NCBI RefSeq assembly: GCF_016026235.1
Contig: NZ_CP065613.1
DNA: 64,000 nucleotides
Origin: Escherichia coli
GTDB taxonomy: Bacteria; Pseudomonadota; Gammaproteobacteria; Enterobacterales; Enterobacteriaceae
Direction: 5' to 3' (one strand)
Shown here: piece after piece, positions 392 through 42,274 of the stretch
How the letters are laid out: each line of letters begins with the position of its first letter
Position numbering within the stretch: position 1 is the stretch's first letter
The notes under the pieces: model-generated
The model's database searches: none
Told to the model about the DNA's origin: nothing
Seen by the model: the letters and a program-made list of their open reading frames with translations, nothing else
Made by a program: the position numbers and the translations under genes

Positions 392-1729
392 TTAAACGGC
401 TTTTACTGCATCGGCGATGCGGTGTGCAAATTCAGTCACCTGCGCTTCGTCTTCGCCTTCCACCATCACGCGAATTAACGGTTCGGTGCCGGATTTACGC
501 AACAGCACACGTCCACGGCTACCCAGCGCCGCTTCAACTTCTGCGGTCACGGCTTTAACTGACTCATGCTCAAGCGGATCGCCGCTACCTGCGGTGTAAC
601 GCACGTTTACCAGGATTTGCGGGAACATTTTCATGCCGCTGCAAAGGTCGTGCAGGCTCATATGGTTACGCGCCATCGCCGCCAGCACCTGCAAACCAGC
701 AACGATGCCGTCACCGGTAGTGGTTTTATCCAGCAGGATCACATGACCGGAATTCTCTGCACCGATACGCCAGCCTTTCTCCTGCATTTTTTCCAGTACG
801 TAGCGGTCACCCACTTTCGCGCGCGCAAATGGAATACCTAACTGTTTCAGCGCCAGTTCAAGCCCCATGTTGCTCATCAATGTACCCACAGCGCCACCAC
901 GCAGCTGGCCCTGACGAAGACCTTCACGCGCGATGATATACATGATCTGATCGCCATCGACTTTATTGCCTTCATGGTCAACCATAATCACGCGATCGCC
1001 GTCGCCGTCGAAGGCAATACCGAGATCCGCTTTTTCAGCCAGCACACGAGCCTGGAGCGCGCGAACGTCGGTAGCCCCCACTTCGGCATTGATGTTTACA
1101 CCGTTTGGCTCACAACCGATAGCGATAACATTCGCTCCCAGTTCGCGCAGCACGTTCGGCGCGATGTGATAAGTCGCACCGTTTGCGCAATCCACCACAA
1201 TCTTCAGTTCACTGAGGCTAAGTTCGTTCGGGAACGTGGCTTTGCAAAACTCGATATAGCGACCCGCAGCATCAACGATACGGCTGGCTTTACCCAGTTC
1301 TGCCGAATCAACACAGCTGATCTCTTTTTCCATTTCCGCTTCGATGGCTTCTTCAACTGCATCCGGCAGCTTAGTACCGTCAATAGAAAAGAATTTAATG
1401 CCATTATCGTAGAACGGGTTATGCGATGCAGATATCACAATTCCGGCCTCTGCGCGGAAGGTACGCGTCAGATAAGCCACGGCCGGTGTTGGCATCGGGC
1501 CAGTGAAGAGTGCGGAAAGGCCCGCAGCCGCCAGCCCCGCTTCCAGTGCTGACTCCAGCATATAGCCAGAAATACGCGTGTCTTTACCAATAATAATCTT
1601 ACGGGAGCCGTGGCGCGCCAGCACTTTACCCGCGGCCCAACCCAGCTTAAGCACAAAATCAGGTGTGATCGGCGCATCCCCTACACGACCACGAATCCCA
1701 TCGGTACCGAAATATTTACGATTACTCAT
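392..1729 (-). CDS. glmM: Phosphoglucosamine mutase
   Basis: ORF track 445 aa, [17 protein letters not shown]... with SASHNP active-site motif; ATG at 1729..1727. Confidence 0.95.
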
Positions 1730-2570: not shown

Positions 2571-2659
2571 GGTGTTATCCCTGGTATGAATTGATAAGAA
2601 AAAACCCCGGAGCACGCCCCGGGGTTTTCGGTACAAATACAGTCATCTGATGCGGGAAC

Positions 2660-4594
2660 TTACTTGTCGCCTAACTGCTCTGACATGGTGTTACCCGGGT
2701 TCGGCGTACGCGGTTCATCAACCGGACGAGGAGCCTTTGGACTACCATTGTCGCCAGAATTGTTAGAAGCGCCTGGTTCTTCCCAGCCCGCTGGCGGACG
2801 TACATCGCGACGTGCCATCAGGTCATCAATCTGCGGTGCGTCGATAGTCTCATATTTCATGAGAGCATCTTTCATCGCATGCAGAATATCCATATTGTCG
2901 GTCAGAAGCTGACGCGCACGATTATAGTTACGCTCAATCAGTGCTTTCACTTCCTGGTCGATGATACGTGCAGTTTCATCGGACATATGTTTCGCTTTCG
3001 CTACGCTACGGCCGAGGAACACTTCACCTTCTTCTTCCGCGTACAGCAGTGGACCCAATTTCTCAGAGAAGCCCCACTGAGTCACCATGTTACGTGCCAG
3101 GTTGGTCGCAACTTTAATATCGTTGGACGCACCGGTAGAAACATGTTCCGGCCCGTAGATGATCTCTTCTGCCAGACGACCACCGTACAGCGTAGAAATC
3201 TGGCTTTCCAGTTTCTGACGGCTGGCGCTGATTGCGTCGCCCTCAGGCAAGAAGAAAGTCACACCCAGCGCACGACCGCGTGGGATAATCGTCACTTTGT
3301 GCACCGGATCGTGCTCCGGCACCAGGCGACCGATAATCGCATGACCCGCTTCGTGGTAAGCCGTCGATTCTTTCTGCGCTTCCGTCATCACCATGGAGCG
3401 ACGTTCCGCACCCATCATGATTTTGTCTTTCGCTTTCTCGAACTCAACCATCGACACAACGCGTTTGTTGCCACGAGCAGCGAACAGTGCCGCTTCGTTC
3501 ACCAGGTTCGCCAGGTCAGCACCGGAGAAACCAGGAGTACCACGGGCAATGATTGCCGCGTCGATATCGGGTGCCAATGGTACGCGACGCATGTGAACTT
3601 TCAGGATCTGCTCACGACCGCGAACATCTGGCAAGCCGACCACAACCTGACGGTCGAAACGGCCAGGACGCAGCAGGGCTGGGTCGAGAACGTCCGGACG
3701 GTTAGTCGCGGCGATAACGATGATACCTTCGTTACCTTCGAAGCCATCCATCTCAACCAGCATCTGGTTCAGAGTCTGTTCACGTTCATCGTGACCACCG
3801 CCCAGACCTGCGCCACGCTGGCGGCCTACGGCGTCGATTTCATCGATAAAGATGATGCACGGTGCCGCTTTCTTCGCCTGTTCGAACATGTCACGAACAC
3901 GGGATGCACCCACACCGACGAACATTTCTACGAAGTCAGAACCGGAGATAGTAAAGAACGGAACTTTCGCTTCGCCTGCAATCGCTTTCGCCAGCAGCGT
4001 TTTACCGGTACCTGGAGGACCGACCATCAGGACGCCTTTCGGGATCTTACCGCCGAGTTTCTGGAAGCGGCTCGGCTCGCGCAGATACTCAACCAGTTCA
4101 GCAACTTCTTCTTTTGCTTCGTCGCAGCCCGCAACGTCAGCAAAGGTCGTTTTGATCTGATCTTCCGTCAGCATGCGCGCTTTGCTCTTACCAAACGACA
4201 TGGCACCTTTGCCACCGCCGCCCTGCATTTGACGCATGAAGAAGATCCAGACACCAATCAGCAACAGCATCGGGAACCAGGAGATGAAGATAGAAGCCAG
4301 CAGGCTTGGTTCTTCAGGCGGTTCACCGACAACCTTGACGTTCTTGGTCAACAGGTTATCCAGTAATTTCGGATCCTGAACCGGAATGTAAGTGGTATAA
4401 CGGTTACTATCTTTCTTGGTAACGTTGATTTCACGTCCGTTGATACGCGCTTCACGAACCTGGTCGTTATTGACCTCTTGTAGGAAGGTAGAGTAATCCA
4501 CCTTACGGCCATTAGACTCGCTGGGCCCAAAGCTCTGGAATACTGACATCAGCACAACGGCAATGACCAGCCAGAGTATTAGGTTTTTCGCCAT
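2660..4594 (-). CDS. ftsH: ATP-dependent zinc metalloprotease FtsH (HflB)
   Basis: ORF track 647 aa; trimmed to [13 protein letters not shown]..., 644 aa; Walker A GPPGTGKT and HEAGH zinc motif present. Confidence 0.95.
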
Positions 4595-6374: not shown

Positions 6375-6621
6375 TTGTTATACCTCTTGAATATTCCTGA
6401 TGGGGCAAGTCTTCACCCACCCCGGCTGTTCGGCCTGCCCGGCATAACTCCTCACCGGGACCAGAAGCAAAAAAATACCGACCCAGGTACAAGTCCCAGG
6501 TCAGCTACAATTCACATTTTGATAGTCATTTTACCCTGAAGTTCCCGAAGGGTCATCGTTTACTTTATAGGGCGTTGCGCCGTAGTATGACGGCTCGATT
6601 CCAGGTTGTTAGCGCGAGATT

Positions 6622-8055: not shown

Positions 8056-8069
8056 TCAAAAAGAAACCC

Positions 8070-8082
8070 CGGCACATGGCCG
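8070..8082. repeat. Target-site duplication, left copy (cggcacatggccg), flanking IS4
   Basis: Identical 13-mer directly abuts both IS4 termini, at 8070..8082 and 9508..9520. Confidence 0.85.
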
Positions 8083-9507
8083 TAATGCCAGTCAGTTAAG
8101 CAACTGACTGGCTCTTTTTCGGGGCTGTGGGGTATTTCCAGGGCCTCTCCTTTACCACTCTCGGGAAGGCCCTTCCCCTTCTCGTCGGTAATTTCACAAG
8201 TTGTCCCATACTTGCAAGATCGCGCATCAGCTCCGGTATACGTCCCGGTGAAGCGCCCTGCAATGTCATCAGCATTCTCATCACCATTCCGCATGATTCT
8301 GAGAAACTCAGTTGATTCGGCCAGTAACCTTTCAGATGTTCCGCCATTTTAATCATCTGATATCTCACCAGATTATAAGCCAGTAAGACACCCCACAGCT
8401 CTTGCTCCACAAGCTCCGGCTTTTTACTTCTCAGCGTCAGCCTGCTCAGTTGCATCGTCTGTTTTATCTCCCTGTATCCCAGTTCGATTTCCCAGCGATG
8501 ACTGTACAGATCCGCCATTTCTCCTCCGGGGAAGCGCATGGCGTCCGTCATCGACGTCAGCAGATGGCAGACTTTTCCTTTGCGCGTCACGGTCAGCAGG
8601 CGGGCTGTCACTTCATTTCCCAGTCCCGGCCACTTTTTTCGTGCCTGCGGGCTGGTTTTCAGCTTCACCAGATGATCGCCTTTACCCAGTTTTCTGAGCT
8701 CTTCATATTGCGCTCCCTTTCTGAGAGGTATCATCCAGTGGCGGTGTTCTCCCGCCAGGCTCCAGGCATTTAACAGTCCCAGTGAGTAATAACCTTTATC
8801 CATTAACGTCAGAGTGTTATCGCCGGTTTGTTCTATAAGTTGCTCAGCAAGCTCATTTTCGCTGTTCTTCATCGTGCCGAAGGCTGCAGCCGTCAGCAGA
8901 TGGCTGGTCAGTTCCATCTGGCAGACCATTTTGACCTGCGGGTAGAGCGCCGGGTTCCCGGCATGTGTCTGGCGGGGAAGGCTGCATCGTTCTCTGGTGT
9001 ATCCGGTGTGCGCCAGAACACACCATCGATGGCCAGCAGGGTCAGGCCGCACCAGTGCGGATGCGGCGTGGCGTTATGCCAGAGCTGCGCTGTTTTCGTG
9101 AACACGCGGCGGACAGCCTCACTTCCCAGGCGCTGGCGGGCCTGAATAACGGCACTGGGGGCAACGAAGGGGCGATTGCCCGGCAGCATGATGTCCAGGC
9201 GATTCACAATCTGGTGAAGAGGTTCTTTACGCTCAAGCGCCATGCCAACAATACACCAGACCATCATTTCGAGGGGAAGACGGCGCTTGCGTAGCGTTAC
9301 AGTACCTGATTCGGCAAGGCAACGAGAGATGAGTTCGGGGTCGAGGTAATCCCCCAGAGAAGTCAGTGGGTTACGCAGAGAATCGTAACGGGATACCAGA
9401 TCAAGAGCCTGTCCAATGTGCATAAAAAAATCCGGAAACAAGTGAGCGTTTCCGGATTCTTACACAGCCACTGGATCGGTCAACTGATCCTTAACTGATC
9501 GGCATTA
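8083..9507 (-). mobile_element. Insertion sequence IS4 (IS4 family), 1425 bp, transposase gene disrupted
   Basis: Termini taatgccagtcagttaag at 8083..8100 and ttaactgatcggcatta at 9491..9507 are imperfect inverted repeats; internal ORFs translate to IS4 transposase InsG; flanked by a 13-bp direct repeat. Confidence 0.92.
8096..9423 (-). pseudogene. insG: IS4 transposase InsG, frameshifted: N-terminal part in one frame, remainder in another
   Basis: ORF 8908..9441 gives MHIGQALDLVSRYDSLRNPL...ENDAAFP then changes frame; ORF 8096..9052 continues [17 protein letters not shown]... to KKSQSVA; frames switch at a G4 run at 8974..8977 (C4 on the coding strand). Confidence 0.85.
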
Positions 9508-9520
9508 CGGCACATGGCCG
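9508..9520. repeat. Target-site duplication, right copy (cggcacatggccg), flanking IS4
   Basis: Identical to 8070..8082; removing the IS and one repeat copy restores the hairpin aaaaccccggc-acatg-gccggggtttt. Confidence 0.85.
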
Positions 9521-9532
9521 GGGTTTTGCTGA

Positions 9533-16207: not shown

Positions 16208-16860
<653 letters not shown>

Positions 16861-21223: not shown

Positions 21224-21790
21224 ATGAGCAAAGCAGGTGCGTCGCTTGCGACCTGTTACGGCCCTGTCAGCGCCGACGTTATAGCAAAAGCAGAGAACAT
21301 TCGTCTGCTGATCCTCGATGTCGATGGCGTACTGTCAGATGGCCTGATTTATATGGGCAATAATGGCGAAGAGCTGAAAGCGTTCAATGTTCGTGACGGT
21401 TATGGCATTCGTTGTGCGCTCACCTCTGATATTGAAGTCGCTATCATTACTGGGCGAAAGGCTAAACTGGTAGAAGATCGTTGTGCCACATTGGGGATCA
21501 CTCACTTGTATCAGGGGCAGTCAAACAAACTGATCGCCTTTAGCGATCTGCTGGAAAAACTGGCGATTGCCCCGGAAAATGTGGCTTATGTCGGCGATGA
21601 TCTCATCGACTGGCCGGTAATGGAAAAAGTGGGTTTAAGCGTCGCCGTGGCCGATGCGCATCCACTGTTGATCCCGCGCGCCGATTACGTGACGCGCATT
21701 GCTGGCGGTCGTGGCGCAGTGCGCGAAGTTTGCGACTTATTACTCCTGGCGCGGGGCAAACTGGATGAAGCCAAAGGGCAATCGATATGA
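21224..21790 (+). CDS. kdsC: 3-deoxy-D-manno-octulosonate 8-phosphate phosphatase KdsC
   Basis: ORF track 188 aa, ...IRLLILDVDGVLSDGLIYMGNNGEELKAF..., HAD phosphatase. Confidence 0.95.
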   Translation: MSKAGASLATCYGPVSADVIAKAENIRLLILDVDGVLSDGLIYMGNNGEELKAFNVRDGYGIRCALTSDIEVAIITGRKAKLVEDRCATLGITHLYQGQSNKLIAFSDLLEKLAIAPENVAYVGDDLIDWPVMEKVGLSVAVADAHPLLIPRADYVTRIAGGRGAVREVCDLLLLARGKLDEAKGQSI

Positions 21791-22362
21791 GTAAAGCCAG
21801 ACGTTGGGTTATCATTGTGCTATCACTGGCGGTTCTGGTGATGATCGGCATTAATATGGCCGAAAAAGACGATACCGCCCAGGTGGTCGTCAACAACAAT
21901 GATCCCACCTATAAAAGCGAGCATACGGACACGCTCGTCTATAACCCAGAAGGGGCACTAAGCTATCGATTGATTGCTCAACACGTTGAATATTATTCCG
22001 ATCAGGCCGTTTCGTGGTTTACGCAGCCGGTACTTACCACGTTTGATAAGGATAAAATCCCGACATGGTCCGTAAAAGCAGATAAAGCCAAGCTGACCAA
22101 TGACCGGATGCTCTATTTATATGGACACGTTGAAGTCAACGCACTTGTGCCGGACTCTCAACTTCGCAGAATCACGACGGATAACGCGCAGATCAATCTG
22201 GTGACGCAGGATGTTACCTCTGAAGACCTCGTCACGTTATACGGAACAACATTTAACTCCAGCGGTCTGAAAATGCGCGGCAACTTACGCAGCAAGAACG
22301 CCGAGCTGATTGAAAAGGTTAGAACATCCTATGAAATTCAAAACAAACAAACTCAGCCTTAA
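21787..22362 (+). CDS. lptC: LPS export system protein LptC
   Basis: ORF track 191 aa, MSKARRWVIIVLSLAVLVMIGINMAEKDD...; ATGA overlap with the kdsC stop. Confidence 0.94.
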   Translation: MSKARRWVIIVLSLAVLVMIGINMAEKDDTAQVVVNNNDPTYKSEHTDTLVYNPEGALSYRLIAQHVEYYSDQAVSWFTQPVLTTFDKDKIPTWSVKADKAKLTNDRMLYLYGHVEVNALVPDSQLRRITTDNAQINLVTQDVTSEDLVTLYGTTFNSSGLKMRGNLRSKNAELIEKVRTSYEIQNKQTQP

Positions 22363-22888
22363 TCTTGTGCTTGCCAGCTCACTTCTGGCCGCCAGCATTC
22401 CGGCATTTGCCGTAACCGGAGACACTGATCAGCCGATCCACATTGAATCGGACCAGCAATCTCTTGATATGCAAGGCAACGTGGTTACCTTTACCGGTAA
22501 TGTCATCGTCACCCAGGGCACCATCAAAATTAATGCCGACAAAGTGGTCGTTACCCGTCCGGGTGGCGAACAAGGTAAAGAAGTGATTGACGGCTACGGT
22601 AAACCGGCAACGTTCTACCAGATGCAGGACAACGGTAAACCCGTTGAAGGTCACGCTTCCCAGATGCACTACGAACTGGCAAAAGATTTTGTCGTTCTGA
22701 CGGGTAATGCTTATCTGCAGCAGGTCGATAGCAACATTAAGGGCGATAAGATCACTTACCTGGTGAAAGAGCAGAAAATGCAGGCTTTCAGCGACAAAGG
22801 CAAGCGCGTAACCACCGTTCTGGTGCCGTCGCAGCTGCAGGACAAAAACAACAAAGGCCAGACCCCGGCACAGAAGAAGGGTAATTAA
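22331..22888 (+). CDS. lptA: LPS export periplasmic protein LptA
   Basis: ORF track 22310..22888; trimmed to the ATG giving MKFKTNKLSLNLVLASSLLAASIPAFA..., 185 aa; overlaps lptC by 32 nt. Confidence 0.94.
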   Translation: MKFKTNKLSLNLVLASSLLAASIPAFAVTGDTDQPIHIESDQQSLDMQGNVVTFTGNVIVTQGTIKINADKVVVTRPGGEQGKEVIDGYGKPATFYQMQDNGKPVEGHASQMHYELAKDFVVLTGNAYLQQVDSNIKGDKITYLVKEQKMQAFSDKGKRVTTVLVPSQLQDKNNKGQTPAQKKGN

Positions 22889-22894
22889 TTCGTT

Positions 22895-23620
22895 ATGGCA
22901 ACATTAACTGCAAAGAACCTTGCAAAAGCCTATAAAGGCCGTCGCGTGGTAGAAGACGTCAGCCTGACCGTCAACTCTGGGGAAATTGTCGGTCTGCTGG
23001 GGCCAAACGGTGCCGGTAAGACCACCACTTTCTATATGGTTGTTGGCATTGTGCCGCGCGATGCGGGCAACATCATTATTGATGATGACGATATCAGTCT
23101 GCTGCCTCTGCATGCACGCGCGCGCCGCGGTATCGGATATCTGCCGCAGGAAGCCTCCATTTTCCGTCGCCTCAGCGTTTACGATAACCTGATGGCGGTA
23201 CTGCAAATTCGTGACGACTTGTCTGCTGAACAACGTGAAGACCGCGCGAACGAGCTGATGGAAGAGTTTCACATTGAGCACCTGCGTGACAGCATGGGGC
23301 AGTCACTCTCCGGGGGTGAACGTCGCCGTGTAGAAATTGCCCGCGCACTGGCTGCGAATCCGAAATTTATTCTGCTCGACGAACCGTTTGCCGGGGTTGA
23401 CCCGATCTCGGTTATCGACATTAAACGCATCATTGAGCACCTGCGCGACAGCGGCCTGGGCGTGCTGATCACTGACCACAACGTGCGTGAAACACTGGCG
23501 GTTTGTGAACGCGCTTATATCGTCAGTCAGGGGCATTTGATCGCCCACGGCACGCCTACAGAAATCTTACAAGACGAACACGTTAAGCGTGTATACCTTG
23601 GGGAAGACTTCAGACTCTGA
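22895..23620 (+). CDS. lptB: LPS export ABC transporter ATPase LptB
   Basis: ORF track 241 aa; Walker [13 protein letters not shown] signature LSGGERRR, Walker B LLDEP. Confidence 0.96.
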
Positions 23621-26065: not shown

Positions 26066-26920
26066 ATGGTACTGATGATCGTCAGCGGACGTTCAGGTTC
26101 AGGTAAATCTGTCGCCCTGCGTGCGCTGGAAGATATGGGTTTTTACTGCGTGGATAACCTTCCCGTAGTGTTGTTACCCGATCTGGCTCGAACCCTGGCC
26201 GATCGCGAGATTTCTGCCGCCGTCAGCATTGATGTTCGTAATATGCCGGAGTCACCAGAAATATTCGAACAGGCGATGAGTAACCTGCCTGACGCTTTCT
26301 CACCGCAACTCCTGTTCCTGGATGCCGACCGTAATACCTTAATTCGTCGTTACAGTGACACGCGCCGACTGCATCCGCTTTCCAGCAAAAACCTGTCGCT
26401 GGAAAGTGCTATCGACAAAGAAAGCGATCTGCTGGAGCCTCTGCGTTCGCGAGCGGATCTGATTGTCGATACCTCAGAAATGTCCGTTCACGAGCTGGCA
26501 GAAATGCTGCGTACCCGTCTGCTGGGTAAACGTGAACGCGAACTGACCATGGTCTTTGAGTCTTTCGGCTTCAAACACGGTATCCCTATCGATGCAGATT
26601 ACGTCTTTGACGTGCGCTTCTTGCCGAACCCGCACTGGGATCCGAAACTGCGTCCAATGACAGGTCTTGATAAGCCTGTCGCCGCGTTCCTCGACCGCCA
26701 CACAGAAGTACACAATTTTATCTACCAGACGCGAAGCTATCTTGAGCTATGGTTACCTATGCTGGAAACCAACAACCGTAGCTACCTGACGGTCGCCATT
26801 GGTTGTACCGGCGGGAAGCACCGTTCGGTGTATATTGCAGAGCAACTGGCTGACTACTTCCGCTCGCGCGGTAAAAACGTCCAGTCACGCCATCGTACGC
26901 TGGAAAAACGTAAACCATGA
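26066..26920 (+). CDS. rapZ: RNase adaptor protein RapZ (YhbJ)
   Basis: ORF track 284 aa, [33 protein letters not shown]..., Walker A. Confidence 0.95.
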
Positions 26921-27402: not shown

Positions 27403-28035
27403 ATGATTCGCTTATCTGAACAAAGTCCCCTGGGCACCGGAAGACATCGGAAATGTTATGCGCATCCGGAAGATGCCCAACGCTGTATCAAGATTGTCTA
27501 CCATCGTGGCGATGGTGGCGATAAAGAGATCCGTCGTGAGTTAAAGTACTACGCGCATCTTGGTCGCCGGTTAAAAGACTGGAGTGGAATACCGCGCTAT
27601 CACGGTACCGTTGAGACGGATTGCGGAACCGGTTATGTCTACGATGTGATTGCCGATTTTGACGGCAAGCCCTCCATTACGCTGACCGAATTTGCTGAAC
27701 AATGCCGTTACGAAGAAGACGTTGCACAACTGCGCCAGTTACTGAAACAGCTGAAGCGTTATTTGCAGGATAACCGTATCGTGACGATGTCGCTGAAGCC
27801 GCAGAATATCCTCTGTCACCGCATTAGTGAGTCAGAGGTTATCCCCGTCGTCTGCGACAACATTGGTGAAAGCACATTGATTCCACTGGCGACCTGGTCA
27901 AAGTGGTGTTGTCTGCGTAAGCAAGAGCGGTTGTGGAAACGATTTATCGCCCAACCGGCGCTGGCTATTGCCCTGCAGAAAGATCTGCAACCTCGTGAGA
28001 GCAAAACGCTGGCCCTCGCTTCGCGCGAAGCTTAA
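27403..28035 (+). CDS. yrbL: PhoP-regulated kinase-like protein YrbL
   Basis: ORF track 210 aa, [39 protein letters not shown]... Confidence 0.88.
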
Positions 28036-28760
28036 TCCAGCTGGTGTTGTTGCATAAACGGCTCACCGCCTAACTGATACATCTGCCGTAAAATCCACGC
28101 CTGACGGCTGCGCACGTAGCCCGATGGCGCGGAGACTTTGAAACGAAGTGGATTAGGTAATACAGCTGCCAGTAAGGCAGCTTCCGATCGGGTAAGTTTG
28201 CTCGCGGGTTTGTGGAAATAACGTTGTGCCGCAGCTTCGACGCCAAACACACCGTCGCCAAATTCGGCGATATTCAGGTAAACCGTCAGGATACGCTTTT
28301 TGCTCCAGACAGTTTCTATCCCCAGCGTTAATCCGGCTTCCAGCCCTTTTCGAACCCAGCTACGCCCATCCCATAAAAAGAGATTTTTGGCTGTCTGTTG
28401 AGAAATCGTTGAAGCACCGCGAATACGGTTTTCATTGCGCTCATTGTGCGCCAGGGCTTTCTCAATGGAAGCGACATCAAAGCCCCAGTGCTCAGGAAAT
28501 TTCTGATCTTCTGCGGCAATCACCGCCAGTCCCATCCACGGCGAGATTTGATCCATACTGACCCAGTCAGAATGTGCCACGTAACGAAAATTGCCATGCA
28601 GCCAGGCGCTGACCTGTCGCTCGACCATTACCGCTGAGAAGGGAACAGGCGCAACGCTAAACAACGCGATGCCCCCGCCCCAGTAAACGGCGAGGACAAC
28701 CATTAACCGCAGAAGAAAACGGCGAACAAAACTAAACACCGTTAAGCGGCTTTTACTCAT
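28032..28760 (-). CDS. mtgA: Monofunctional peptidoglycan glycosyltransferase MtgA
   Basis: ORF track 242 aa, ...[14 protein letters not shown]...[15 protein letters not shown]..., transglycosylase motifs. Confidence 0.94.
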
Positions 28761-29527: not shown

Positions 29528-29648
29528 GTGCGGCCTGAAAAACAGTGCTGTGCCCTTGTAACTCATCATAATAATTTACGGCGCAGCCAAGATTTCCCTG
29601 GTGTTGGCGCAGTATTCGCGCACCCCGGTCTAGCCGGGGTCATTTTTT
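29528..29648 (+). ncRNA. arcZ: Small regulatory RNA ArcZ (SraH/RyhA)
   Basis: Sequence GTGCGGCCTGAAAAACAGTGCTGTGCCCTTGTAACTCATCATAATAATTTACGGCGCAGCCAAG... ends in the hairpin caccccggtctagccggggtc plus T6; lies between elbB and arcB, convergent with arcB. Confidence 0.9.
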
Positions 29649-31976
29649 AGTGGCTTTTGCCACCCACGCTTTCAGCACTTCTACGTCGTGACGCCACTCT
29701 TCTTTCATCTCTTCAATCCATTCACCGACGTTATCTTCCCAGGCAGGAAGGTCAGGAGACTGAATTTGCTGACCCAGCTGTTGCAGATGGCGTAACCCCA
29801 CTGACCCCGCCGCACCTTTAATTTTATGTCCTTCCTCAACAATGCCTTTTTTATCCTGCGCCGTCAGATTCGACTCCAGCACGCTGACATAGCCCGGCAT
29901 CATCTTCTCAAACACCGCTAACCCGTCGGTGATCAGCTTCGGTCCTACAAGTTCGAGATACTGTTCCAGCATGGGAATATCGAGCAATGCTTCTGATTTA
30001 CTGTTCTCTTCTGTCGTCACCGTACTCTCCTCATCATCCTGGGTATCCCAGAATTTCTTGATCATCGCGGTTAGCGCCGGAACAGAAAGCGGCTTACTCA
30101 GCACATCATCCATTCCAGCATTGAGGTACTCTTGTTTGTCTTTCAGCACGTTAGCGGTTAAGGCCACCAGCGGCGGTAAATCCTCTCGCGGATAACGCTT
30201 CGTCAGTTCACGAGAGATATCCAGCCCGGTCATATCTGGCAACTGAATATCCAGTAACACCAGGTCGTATTCGCCCGGTTTAAACATCTCTAGCGCCGCC
30301 TTGCCGGTCATGGCGACATCAACGCTGTTACCTAATTTTTCCAGCACAGAACGCGCGACAATCACGTTCAGTTCAATGTCTTCCACCAGTAGCACATTCA
30401 GCGCCGGTAAAGGCATATCGTCTTCATCAAACGCATCATCGACCTCTTCTGCCACCGACGGTGCGTGGATCGTCAACGTAAAGGTTGAACCTTTGCCCTG
30501 TTCGCTGGTAACCGTAATATCGCCACCCATATTTTTCGCCAGACGACGAGAAACGGCCAGACCAATACCGGTGCCGGTGGCAGGTTTACCGCCATGACTG
30601 TCTTTCACCTGGTAATACATGGCGAAGATTTTATCCAGCTCATCCTGCGGAATGCCGATACCAGAATCTTCCACTTCAAAATGCAGCATATCGCCTTCAT
30701 CGTAGCGCACGCGCACGGTAACCTGGCCTTGCTGGGTGAATTTGACGGCGTTACTGATGAGGTTCCACAGGATCTGCCGTAAACGCGTCCCGTCGGTAAT
30801 GACCTGATGCGGTAATGGCAGCGTAGGCTCCAGGTTAAAGCGCAATCCTTTTTGTTGCGCCTGCAATGCGGAGAGATTTTCCAGATCGGCAAGGAAGCTG
30901 GTGAAATCAACCGGCTGATTATCAAGCTGGACCTTGCGCCGTTCCATCTTATCCATGTCGATAATATCGTTAAAGATATTCCCCAGCGTGACGGCCGAAA
31001 CATGGATAGTTTTGAGATATTTTTCCTGCTCGGCGGTGAGTTCGGTATCCAGCAGAATGCGGCTCAGGCCGACGATACCGTTCAGCGGTGTACGCAATTC
31101 GTGACTGATGGTGGAGATAAACGTCGTTTTGTCGCGGCTGGCCCGTTCAAGCGCATCCTGATACCGCTTACGCTCGGTAATGTCGCGACCAAAGCCCATC
31201 AAACCGTGACGTTTACCCACGCGGTCGTAGTACGGCACTTTACGGATTTCAAAGCAGGCTTTGCGCCCGTCCGGGTAATCCAGCCACTGTTCATAGGTCA
31301 GTGACACATTATGACGGAACACTTTTTCATCGGTTTCAATGACTTTCGCAGCGGCTTCCGGTGAGTAAACATCAGCAGGTTTCAGATGAACCAGTTGTTT
31401 TTCGCTTTTTCCGGTCAGCAGCTCCATCGCGCGGTTACAGCCGGAAAACTCTTTATCTTCGTTACGATAAAAAACCAGGTCGGGTGAAGCATCAAGGAAG
31501 GAACGTAAGAATGAGGATTGCTGCTCGAGCTGAATTTGTGTCTCTTCGCGCTCTTTGATTTCAATTTTCAGTTGGCCGAAGGTTTCCTGCAGTTCTGCTT
31601 CCGCTTTTTCACGAACGGCAATTTCCTGATTTAGCTGGGCAATATTATCTTTTAACTGAACGTTGAGGCTCAAATCGCGCTCGCGCATCTCCTCCAGTTT
31701 TTGCACCAGCCGTGACAGACGTTGTCGTGACTCCTCCAGTTGCTCGACGACCACCGATAGAAAGTAGACCGCCCACGGCGTAATCAGCAAACCAAAGAAG
31801 ATAGAACGAATAACATCAATGCTTTCGACCTGACCATGCAGCACCATGGTTACCGCCATTTGTACCACAATGGCAAGAACGACGAGGGCCAGCGCCAGCA
31901 ACATTGAGAAGCGCACCAGACCTAACTTCATCATCAGGTCAACATAATACTGCGCCAGCAGACGAATTTGCTTCAT
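29640..31976 (-). CDS. arcB: Aerobic respiration control sensor kinase ArcB
   Basis: ORF track 778 aa, MKQIRLLAQYYVDLMMKLGLVRFSMLL...; HisKA H-box ISHELRTPLNG, receiver and Hpt domains. Confidence 0.96.
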   Translation of the reverse strand: MKQIRLLAQYYVDLMMKLGLVRFSMLLALALVVLAIVVQMAVTMVLHGQVESIDVIRSIFFGLLITPWAVYFLSVVVEQLEESRQRLSRLVQKLEEMRERDLSLNVQLKDNIAQLNQEIAVREKAEAELQETFGQLKIEIKEREETQIQLEQQSSFLRSFLDASPDLVFYRNEDKEFSGCNRAMELLTGKSEKQLVHLKPADVYSPEAAAKVIETDEKVFRHNVSLTYEQWLDYPDGRKACFEIRKVPYYDRVGKRHGLMGFGRDITERKRYQDALERASRDKTTFISTISHELRTPLNGIVGLSRILLDTELTAEQEKYLKTIHVSAVTLGNIFNDIIDMDKMERRKVQLDNQPVDFTSFLADLENLSALQAQQKGLRFNLEPTLPLPHQVITDGTRLRQILWNLISNAVKFTQQGQVTVRVRYDEGDMLHFEVEDSGIGIPQDELDKIFAMYYQVKDSHGGKPATGTGIGLAVSRRLAKNMGGDITVTSEQGKGSTFTLTIHAPSVAEEVDDAFDEDDMPLPALNVLLVEDIELNVIVARSVLEKLGNSVDVAMTGKAALEMFKPGEYDLVLLDIQLPDMTGLDISRELTKRYPREDLPPLVALTANVLKDKQEYLNAGMDDVLSKPLSVPALTAMIKKFWDTQDDEESTVTTEENSKSEALLDIPMLEQYLELVGPKLITDGLAVFEKMMPGYVSVLESNLTAQDKKGIVEEGHKIKGAAGSVGLRHLQQLGQQIQSPDLPAWEDNVGEWIEEMKEEWRHDVEVLKAWVAKATKK

Positions 31977-38136: not shown

Positions 38137-39567
<1,431 letters not shown>

Positions 39568-39750
39568 GCTCTGTCCCAGCGCCGCCTCCTCAGAAAAGAG
39601 TCGGCGCTGAAATTCTCCTTTCGTTCTGGAAAGCGCCTCGCATAATCTGAAGAAAACCAATGTAATACGCACATCTGGATTGTTACCGGCAGATGCCCGG
39701 CGTATAGCTGATTCCATTATTCAACACTGCGCCATATAAAGGGAAAGATA

Positions 39751-40878
39751 ATGGAATCGCTTTCAGAGAGAACCTCAACAGGCTACCAGCAAATCCACGA
39801 CGGTATTATTCACCTGGTCGATAGCGCCCGGACGGAAACGGTACGTAGCGTTAACGCGCTGATGACCGCGACATACTGGGAAATTGGCCGACGAATTGTC
39901 GAATTTGAACAAGGTGGCGAGGCCAGGGCTGCGTATGGTGCGCAGCTAATCAAGCGACTATCAAAGGATTTAAGTCTAAGGTATAAGCGTGGGTTCTCTG
40001 CAAAAAACTTACGCCAAATGAGGCTTTTTTACCTCTTTTTTCAACATGTTGAAATTCGCCAGACAGTGTCTGGCGAATTAACACCATTGGGAATTCCGCA
40101 GACACCATCTGCAGAATTCCCATCGGCAAAGATTTGGCAGACGCTGTCTGCCAAATCTTTCCCCCTGCCCTGGTCCACCTACGTCCGTTTACTTTCCGTT
40201 AAAAACGCTGACGCCCGCAGCTTTTATGAAAAAGAGACGCTCCGCTGTGGCTGGTCTGTTCGCCAGCTAGAACGGCAAATTGCGACCCAATTTTATGAGC
40301 GAACACTGCTGTCACATGACAAATCAGCCATGCTGCAACAACACGCTCCTGCCGAGACGCATATTCTTCCGCAACAGGCGATACGCGATCCCTTTGTGCT
40401 CGAATTTCTGGAATTGAAAGATGAATACTCAGAATCCGATTTTGAGGAGGCGCTGATCAACCACCTGATGGATTTTATGCTGGAACTTGGGGATGATTTT
40501 GCCTTTGTTGGTCGGCAGCGAAGGTTACGCATTGATGACAACTGGTTTCGTGTCGATCTGCTGTTTTTCCACCGCCGTTTACGCTGCCTGCTAATCGTCG
40601 ATCTAAAAGTGGGCAAATTCAGCTATAGCGATGCCGGACAGATGAATATGTATCTCAACTACGCCAAAGAGCACTGGACGCTACCGGATGAAAATCCGCC
40701 CATCGGTCTGGTTCTCTGTGCAGAGAAAGGAGTCGGAGAAGCGCATTATGCACTGGCTGGTTTGCCTAACACCGTTCTGGCGAGTGAATATAAGATGCAA
40801 CTACCTGATGAAAAACGACTCGCGGATGAACTCGTTCGAACACAGTCGGTGCTAGAAGAAGGCTATAGACTCCGTTAA
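39751..40878 (+). CDS. yhcG: DUF1016 / PD-(D/E)XK nuclease-superfamily protein YhcG
   Basis: ORF track 375 aa, MESLSERTSTGYQQIHDGIIHLVDSARTETVRSVNALMTATYWEIGRRIVEFEQ... Confidence 0.85.
   Translation: MESLSERTSTGYQQIHDGIIHLVDSARTETVRSVNALMTATYWEIGRRIVEFEQGGEARAAYGAQLIKRLSKDLSLRYKRGFSAKNLRQMRLFYLFFQHVEIRQTVSGELTPLGIPQTPSAEFPSAKIWQTLSAKSFPLPWSTYVRLLSVKNADARSFYEKETLRCGWSVRQLERQIATQFYERTLLSHDKSAMLQQHAPAETHILPQQAIRDPFVLEFLELKDEYSESDFEEALINHLMDFMLELGDDFAFVGRQRRLRIDDNWFRVDLLFFHRRLRCLLIVDLKVGKFSYSDAGQMNMYLNYAKEHWTLPDENPPIGLVLCAEKGVGEAHYALAGLPNTVLASEYKMQLPDEKRLADELVRTQSVLEEGYRLR
40053..40160. repeat. Three consecutive hyphenated palindromes inside the yhcG coding sequence
   Basis: 40053..40079 aattcgccagaca-g-tgtctggcgaatt; 40091..40119 gaattccgcaga-cacca-tctgcagaattc (one mismatch); 40128..40160 aaagatttggcagac-gct-gtctgccaaatcttt; shared CAGACA/TGTCTG core. 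Confidence 0.8.
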
Positions 40879-40893
40879 TTTCAGCGGTTTCGA

Positions 40894-40918
40894 ATTCTGC
40901 AGACACTGTCTGCAGAAT
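40894..40918. repeat. Fourth palindrome of the same family, 16 bp after the yhcG stop
   Basis: attctgcagaca-c-tgtctgcagaat, a perfect 12+1+12 palindrome, near-identical to the copy at 40091..40119. Confidence 0.8.
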
Positions 40919-40937
40919 CTTTAAAACGAACTAAGTT

Positions 40938-42270
<1,333 letters not shown>

Positions 42271-42274
<4 letters not shown>

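Follow-up and report, generated by a model that had tools for sequence, protein, structure and literature searches.

The gene overlaps in the window, by which we mean the whole 64,000-nt stretch of Escherichia coli DNA that was analyzed (contig NZ_CP065613.1), are real, occur at background frequency, and are neither enriched nor unusual. Very probably they are the normal annotated junctions of their operons, with ribosomes reinitiating at the short overlaps and with lptA initiating mainly by itself. As a discovery the overlaps carry little weight: they are textbook operon architecture, already known and found across all E. coli annotations, and the 32-nt overlap of lptC and lptA, along with two minor promoters within lptC, is already published (PMC4986956). 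What is added here is the conservation of that overlap across species, evidence against an upstream TTG start for lptA, and a map of synonymous constraint. The one mildly interesting by-product is an extended block of synonymous constraint with an invariant 16-mer at the 3’ end of lptC.

Overlapping genes in the window and their frequency

The segment is E. coli chromosome from secG to tldD. By the PGAP annotation of strain FDAARGOS_943 and that of K-12 MG1655, its gene order begins with secG, glmM-folP, ftsH, rlmE and the mla operon, continues through yrbG-kdsD-kdsC-lptC-lptA-lptB-rpoN-hpf-ptsN-rapZ-npr, and ends with yrbL, mtgA-elbB, arcB, gltBD, yhcG and nanQKETA-nanR, on to tldD. Of 5426 complete E. 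coli genomes, 5423 match a 15-kb query around the feature under study across 80% or more of the query, with FDAARGOS_943 as the best match at 99.9% identity. Over 22250..22420, which covers the whole lptC/lptA junction, the window is identical to K-12.

We translated every junction gene from the coordinates implied by annotation, and each reads as one uninterrupted frame that begins with ATG and has its only stop at the end. All nine overlaps listed by a first-pass annotation made from the sequence were recovered base for base, in agreement with the PGAP and K-12 annotations (Table 1), and a check of the annotation found no further CDS/CDS overlap in the window. Overlap of a stop codon with a start codon is seen at kdsC/lptC, rapZ/npr, elbB/mtgA, nanE/nanK and nanK/nanQ (ATGA) and at mlaC/mlaB (TAATG), and the gene order and strands in the annotations place the members of these pairs next to each other on the same strand. 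The folP/glmM (8 nt), lptC/lptA (32 nt) and yrbL/mtgA (convergent) overlaps fall outside this class. The first-pass annotation had grouped folP/glmM with the ATGA junctions while giving its length as 8 nt in brackets; that length stands, and the junction is not a true ATGA stop/start overlap. Co-transcription of the pairs outside yrbG-lptB is assumed from distance and established knowledge. The genes from yrbG to lptB form one operon (PMC4986956).

Table 1. Overlapping genes in the window and sigmaE-like candidate sites within lptC
Feature	Position	Strand	Sequence	Overlap	Agreement or basis
folP/glmM	1722..1729	-	ATGAGTAA	8 nt	PGAP
mlaC/mlaB	16207	-	TAATG	1 nt	PGAP and K-12
kdsC/lptC	21787..21790	+	ATGA	4 nt	PGAP and K-12
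lptC/lptA	22331..22362	+	ATGAAATTCAAAACAAACAAACTCAGCCTTAA (lptA ATG to lptC TAA)	32 nt	PGAP and K-12
rapZ/npr	26917..26920	+	ATGA	4 nt	PGAP and K-12
elbB/mtgA	28757..28760	-	ATGA	4 nt	PGAP and K-12
nanE/nanK	42271..42274	-	ATGA	4 nt	PGAP
nanK/nanQ (yhcH)	41399..41402	-	ATGA	4 nt	PGAP
yrbL/mtgA, convergent	28032..28035	both	TTAA (stop codons overlapping on opposite strands)		PGAP and K-12
sigmaE-like candidate A	22243..22270	+	GGAACAA-N16-TCTGA		pattern match
sigmaE-like candidate B	22280..22309	+	GCAACTT-N18-GCTGA		consensus scan

Translational coupling, the heading under which all nine overlaps had been gathered, cannot apply to yrbL/mtgA, as these are convergent genes on separate mRNAs. The shared TTAA simply marks two convergent genes abutting, with no bearing on translation. 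We looked for a terminator-like hairpin at this junction and found none.

The 65 genes of the window form 46 co-directional adjacent pairs, 8 of which overlap (17%). For most groups of prokaryotes, about 15% of co-directional pairs are reported to overlap (Huber et al. 2019, PMC6728339), and the overlaps are therefore not enriched, since the two frequencies are indistinguishable (binomial p=0.68). The -4 spacing is itself abundant, partly because three of its four bases already come with the start codon (review, PMC12548453). The first-pass description of these overlaps as expected for their operons thus holds, as they are standard annotated E. coli junctions at the usual frequency.

Other features of the window were seen along the way. 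The interval between dacB and obgE holds an IS4-family insertion element (8064..9526) with imperfect terminal inverted repeats of 37 nt (8064-8100 and 9490-9526). Its transposase is divided between two overlapping minus-strand ORFs (8908..9441 and 8096..9052) and is apparently frameshifted, since these ORFs match the N- and C-terminal parts, respectively, of the NF033592 IS4 transposase model. FDAARGOS_943 is without the element at dacB/obgE and instead carries an ISEc60-family copy in the folP-ftsH interval. A near-perfect match to the sigmaE-type consensus (GGAACTT-N17-TCTGA, 2655..2683, plus strand) occurs at the ftsH stop codon and points antisense into the ftsH 3’ end; it could be a chance match, with 0.34 expected per window. 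Rfam places the ArcZ sRNA at 29528..29635 (120.8 bits) and a greA leader cis-regulatory element upstream of greA at 6470..6591 on the minus strand (124.9 bits). By the K-12 annotation ArcZ is 121 nt long (29528..29648) and reaches 9 nt into the 3’ end of the convergent arcB (29640..31976), an RNA/CDS overlap absent from the first-pass list. Within 39567..40938, yhcG (39751..40878), to which no NCBIfam model matched, comes immediately after gltD and is followed by the nan operon, an arrangement shared with FDAARGOS_943. The gltD-nan interval of K-12 holds gltF and the fimbrial-like yhcA-F genes, and this strain would thus lack the gltF/yhcA-F block.

The lptC/lptA overlap and the initiation of lptA

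The lptC gene occupies 21787..22362 and lptA 22331..22888, with lptA in the +1 frame relative to lptC, and the 32 shared nucleotides, which include the lptC TAA, match the published length (PMC4986956). We compared the locus among the 80 closest Enterobacteriaceae species, whose LptA is 80-100% identical and all 80 of which have homologues of both LptC and LptA. In 76 of them the overlap measures exactly 32 nt, the lptA ATG is invariant in all 80, and the kdsC/lptC ATGA is found in 77, the remaining 3 being truncated or N-containing contigs. Four species have overlaps of 17 nt (two species), 101 nt or 170 nt, in which the lptC stop has moved and the lptA ATG is kept, and the length of the LptC C-terminal tail is therefore not strictly fixed. 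These altered stops (L060, L071, L066 and L074) belong to Entomohabitans (170 nt), Tenebrionibacter (101 nt) and two ‘Citrobacter/Chryseobacterium sp. 1805x/1806x’ assemblies (17 nt). Assembly L074 is labelled Chryseobacterium and yet has a locus of Enterobacteriaceae type, and for this reason is probably mislabelled or contaminated.

In the lptA frame, third-position identity falls from 0.99 within the overlap to 0.55 over the remainder of lptA (p=2e-7), and in the lptC frame it is 0.88 within the overlap compared with 0.51 for the lptC body (p=3.5e-6). These values point to a genuine dual-coding overlap with both frames under purifying selection. Past the lptA ATG, lptC continues for 10 codons within the stretch that encodes the N-terminus of the LptA signal peptide, and because two reading frames share these codons, every base of the overlap is doubly constrained.

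An ORF finder extends lptA back to a TTG at 22310, and we rejected this codon as the start. In 6 species an in-frame TGA, arising where GTG replaces GTT, lies upstream of the ATG, and the bases just 5’ of the ATG vary synonymously in the lptC frame and non-synonymously in the lptA frame. The comparative data provide independent support for the annotated start, and the ATG at 22331 appears to be correctly placed.

Constraint extends beyond the overlap itself. Synonymous change is suppressed over some 120 nt of the lptC 3’ end, beginning about 90 nt 5’ of the lptA ATG; in 22245..22330 (plus strand) third-position identity in lptC is 0.78, compared with 0.51 in the body of the gene (p=2e-7), and a sliding profile agrees. 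The suppression peaks at the invariant 16-mer AGCTGATTGAAAAGGT (22304..22319, plus strand), 12-27 nt upstream of the lptA ATG, which is the only run of at least 11 nt at 95% conservation or more in kdsC-lptB (2397 nt, 77 species) and contains both a weak Shine-Dalgarno (SD)-like AAGG and the GCTGA of sigmaE-like candidate B. The 16-mer takes in synonymous sites, and a rare AGA codon adjoins it. Ahead of lptC, identity at the kdsC 3’ end rises only briefly (0.76 in its final 10 codons), and ahead of lptB there is hardly any rise at the lptA 3’ end (0.61). Since neither compares with the rise in lptC, the lptC 3’ end carries non-coding information beyond the overlap. Third-position conservation is also high over the first 10 codons of lptC (21787..21816; 0.88 versus 0.50 in the gene body), which suggests that the lptC initiation region just after the kdsC/lptC ATGA is under constraint.

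The stretch 22245..22330 is likely home to the lptA translation initiation region and the published internal promoters. Two minor promoters, lptAp1, which is sigmaE-dependent, and lptAp2, lie within lptC upstream of lptA and drive lptAB under lptC depletion (PMC4986956, where the sigmaE dependence and start of lptAp1 are attributed to Martorana 2011). Of the two sigmaE-like candidates in Table 1, candidate A is perfect in E. coli, and its pattern has 2 matches in the window versus 0.34 expected; its conservation is poor, and only 10 of 79 sequences retain TCTGA. Candidate B scores 10/12 with a spacer of 18 nt; 77 of 79 sequences retain its -10, and its -35 persists as NNAAYTT, with a perfect GGAACTT in 8. 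Under the sigmaE spacing rules of 15-19 nt from -35 to -10 and 25-28 nt from -35 to +1 (Rhodius et al. 2006, PMC1312014), candidate B would have its predicted +1 near 22312-22317, leaving a leader of about 15-19 nt that includes the AAGG. From this arrangement we infer that the conserved block may combine a promoter with a ribosome-binding site. A simple scan of 21700..22950 found no sigma70 consensus promoter, a result that is uninformative for weak promoters, and the Rhodius 2012 paper does not mention lptA/yhbN.

We propose that lptA starts at the ATG at 22331, probably mainly on its own, from an initiation region that is conserved, unstructured and A-rich and that lies within the last ~30 codons of lptC. 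The same codons would carry lptAp1 and lptAp2, whose transcripts leave no room for coupling to lptC translation. Independent initiation of lptA is at least possible and probably important, because mRNAs from the internal promoters lack lptC translation and because the most conserved stretch of kdsC-lptB precedes the start. The competing account is strict coupling, in which ribosomes that have terminated at the lptC stop (22360-22362) move backward by 32 nt and start again at the ATG at 22331; we give it only a slight chance, and the same slight chance to its corollary that LptA output is set by lptC translation. Co-transcription from the strong yrbG promoter and the presence of the products in one complex (PMC4986956) fit such coupling, as does the recurrence of the 32-nt geometry in 76 of the 80 species. 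So does the SD of lptA, whose only SD-like element, the AAGG, forms an anti-SD duplex of just -3.4 kcal/mol at a spacing of 11-12 nt. A strong site of independent initiation would not be expected to show so weak an AAGG at this distance from the ATG, which counts against self-initiation. However, coupling efficiency drops fast with the distance between stop and start, and changes of less than 20 nt can cut it substantially (review, PMC12548453), while the four species with 17, 101 or 170 nt have moved the lptC stop and kept the lptA ATG. Internal-promoter transcripts of lptAB, which are without lptC translation, support expression under lptC depletion (PMC4986956). Nor is the start masked by inhibitory structure: an inhibitory mRNA hairpin over it, to be melted by lptC ribosomes, was considered and rejected (MFE z=-0.55), and no conserved RNA structure over it was found (alifold -6 kcal/mol). 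The decay with distance, the changes in overlap length, the internal promoters and the lack of a masking structure together make strict coupling to lptC unlikely as the main route to lptA, and the fixed 32 nt is more simply explained by dual-coding constraint.

The known internal promoters, together with the ribosome-binding region of lptA, are the most likely reason for the constraint and the 16-mer. It is conceivable, if improbable, that the 16-mer and its ~120 nt exceed what these ‘minor’ promoters would call for, and form either a deeply conserved, closely packed control module or a site for a new RNA or protein regulator. Such a module would place a sigmaE-type -10, a transcription start and a ribosome-binding site within the last codons of lptC, giving an lptAB mRNA with a very short leader. 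If true, a control module or regulator site would fix the ratio of LptA to LptC independently of the overlap. Both lptC and lptA are essential and serve as antibiotic targets, and for their engineering it matters that lptA expression signals and the lptA start lie within the final ~40 codons of lptC, where deletion or recoding would affect LptA and LptB.

Short junctions, Shine-Dalgarno strength and start codons

Where the overlap is 1, 4 or 8 nt (seven junctions), a ribosome ending the upstream gene would sit on the next start codon and would most likely re-initiate there (termination-reinitiation), with variable SD help from the last codons of the upstream gene. By analogy, coupling at the 1-nt and 4-nt junctions is plausible: tests on five native E. 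coli ATGA pairs showed coupling in four, the exception being bioBF, which initiates de novo despite its ATGA overlap (PMC6728339). SD duplexes are strong for nanQ (-8.2 kcal/mol) and nanK (-8.1 kcal/mol), moderate for glmM and lptC, and weak (-2.2 to -3.4 kcal/mol) for lptA (-3.4), npr (-3.3), mlaB (-3.3) and mtgA (-2.2, the weakest). The weak SDs of npr, mtgA and mlaB would fit a reliance on the upstream ribosome, and nanQ and nanK could initiate de novo because their SDs are strong. Genes with overlapping starts tended toward weaker SDs than those with non-overlapping starts, a non-significant trend (p=0.08), and we dropped SD strength as a discriminator between the two.

The short overlaps could also be neutral by-products of stop and start mutation in compact genomes, with the downstream genes initiating de novo. 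The ease with which -4 spacing evolves, given that the start codon provides three of its four bases (PMC12548453), the precedent of bioBF, the background frequency of overlaps in the window and the strong SDs of nanK and nanQ would all sit well with this. We nevertheless find it doubtful, as it must contend with the coupling of the other four native ATGA pairs (PMC6728339), the very weak SDs of npr, mtgA and mlaB, and the retention of the kdsC/lptC ATGA across 77 species. Reinitiation at the short junctions is the reading that we retain.

Some of the annotated starts have competitors. The nanQ (yhcH) gene opens with three consecutive ATGs (41394..41402, minus strand: ATGATGATG), and its start is ambiguous: the first ATG gives a 4-nt overlap with nanK, the second 1 nt and the third none. 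The longest mlaB ORF starts at a GTG at 16303 and encodes 129 aa, compared with the annotated 97 aa. One or more annotated starts could therefore be wrong, and some overlaps could be annotation artefacts, were nanQ to use its second or third ATG, mlaB the GTG, or lptA the TTG to which the ORF finder extends it. The K-12 MlaB protein record stands at version 4, and in the accessible sources direct N-terminal evidence covers only npr. Against this are the lptA ATG in 80 of 80 species, the stop after the TTG in 6 of them and upstream substitutions that are non-coding in the lptA frame, as well as the agreement of two independent annotations on all starts and the kdsC/lptC ATGA kept in 77 of 80. 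We regard mistaken starts as unlikely, and the annotated starts as the better choice.

The first-pass annotation had proposed N-terminal proteomics as a check on the chosen starts. The signal peptide of LptA is cleaved in the mature protein, and N-terminal proteomics of mature LptA is therefore blind to its start codon. The approach would be usable for cytoplasmic proteins, and LptA would need initiation profiling or nascent-chain methods. For npr the proposed check succeeds: the accessible part of the TRAINSPOTTER supplement contains an N-terminal peptide at the annotated ATG, at K-12 position 3347966, which is the ATG of the rapZ/npr overlap. Among the entries listed there, npr is the sole junction gene of the window, and the entries of the INRI-seq supplements include none of the window’s junction genes.

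Comparison with known coupled genes, sigmaE promoters and the lpt operon

The short junctions of the window resemble the trpE/trpD and trpB/trpA pairs of the trp operon in having a stop/start overlap of a few bases within one operon. Coupling in the trp pairs was reportedly demonstrated genetically by Oppenheim and Yanofsky in 1980 (cited in PMC12548453), whereas for the window pairs we infer it. The ATGA/TGATG pairs studied by Huber et al. 2019 (hyfHI, astDB, ydbH/ynbE as well as menDH; PMC6728339) are likewise co-directional with 4-nt or 1-nt overlaps, and both sets may have in common an SD of variable strength inside the upstream gene. None of the window’s pairs is among those tested in that work, and the window’s 8-nt, 32-nt and convergent overlaps fall outside its ATGA/TGATG class.

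Taking the known sigmaE promoters of Rhodius et al. 2006 (PMC1312014) as the reference class, the two sigmaE-like sites in lptC are sequence candidates that resemble GGAACTT-N15-19-TCAAA/TCTGA, and one of them is conserved across Enterobacteriaceae. Candidate B departs from the sigmaE optimum of that study in its 18-nt spacer and its GCTGA -10. The yrbG-kdsD-kdsC-lptC-lptA-lptB operon of Sperandeo 2006 and Martorana 2011, as far as it is described in PMC4986956, is the same locus, with a junction identical to that of K-12, and with respect to that description of yrbG-lptB the overlap itself shows no difference.
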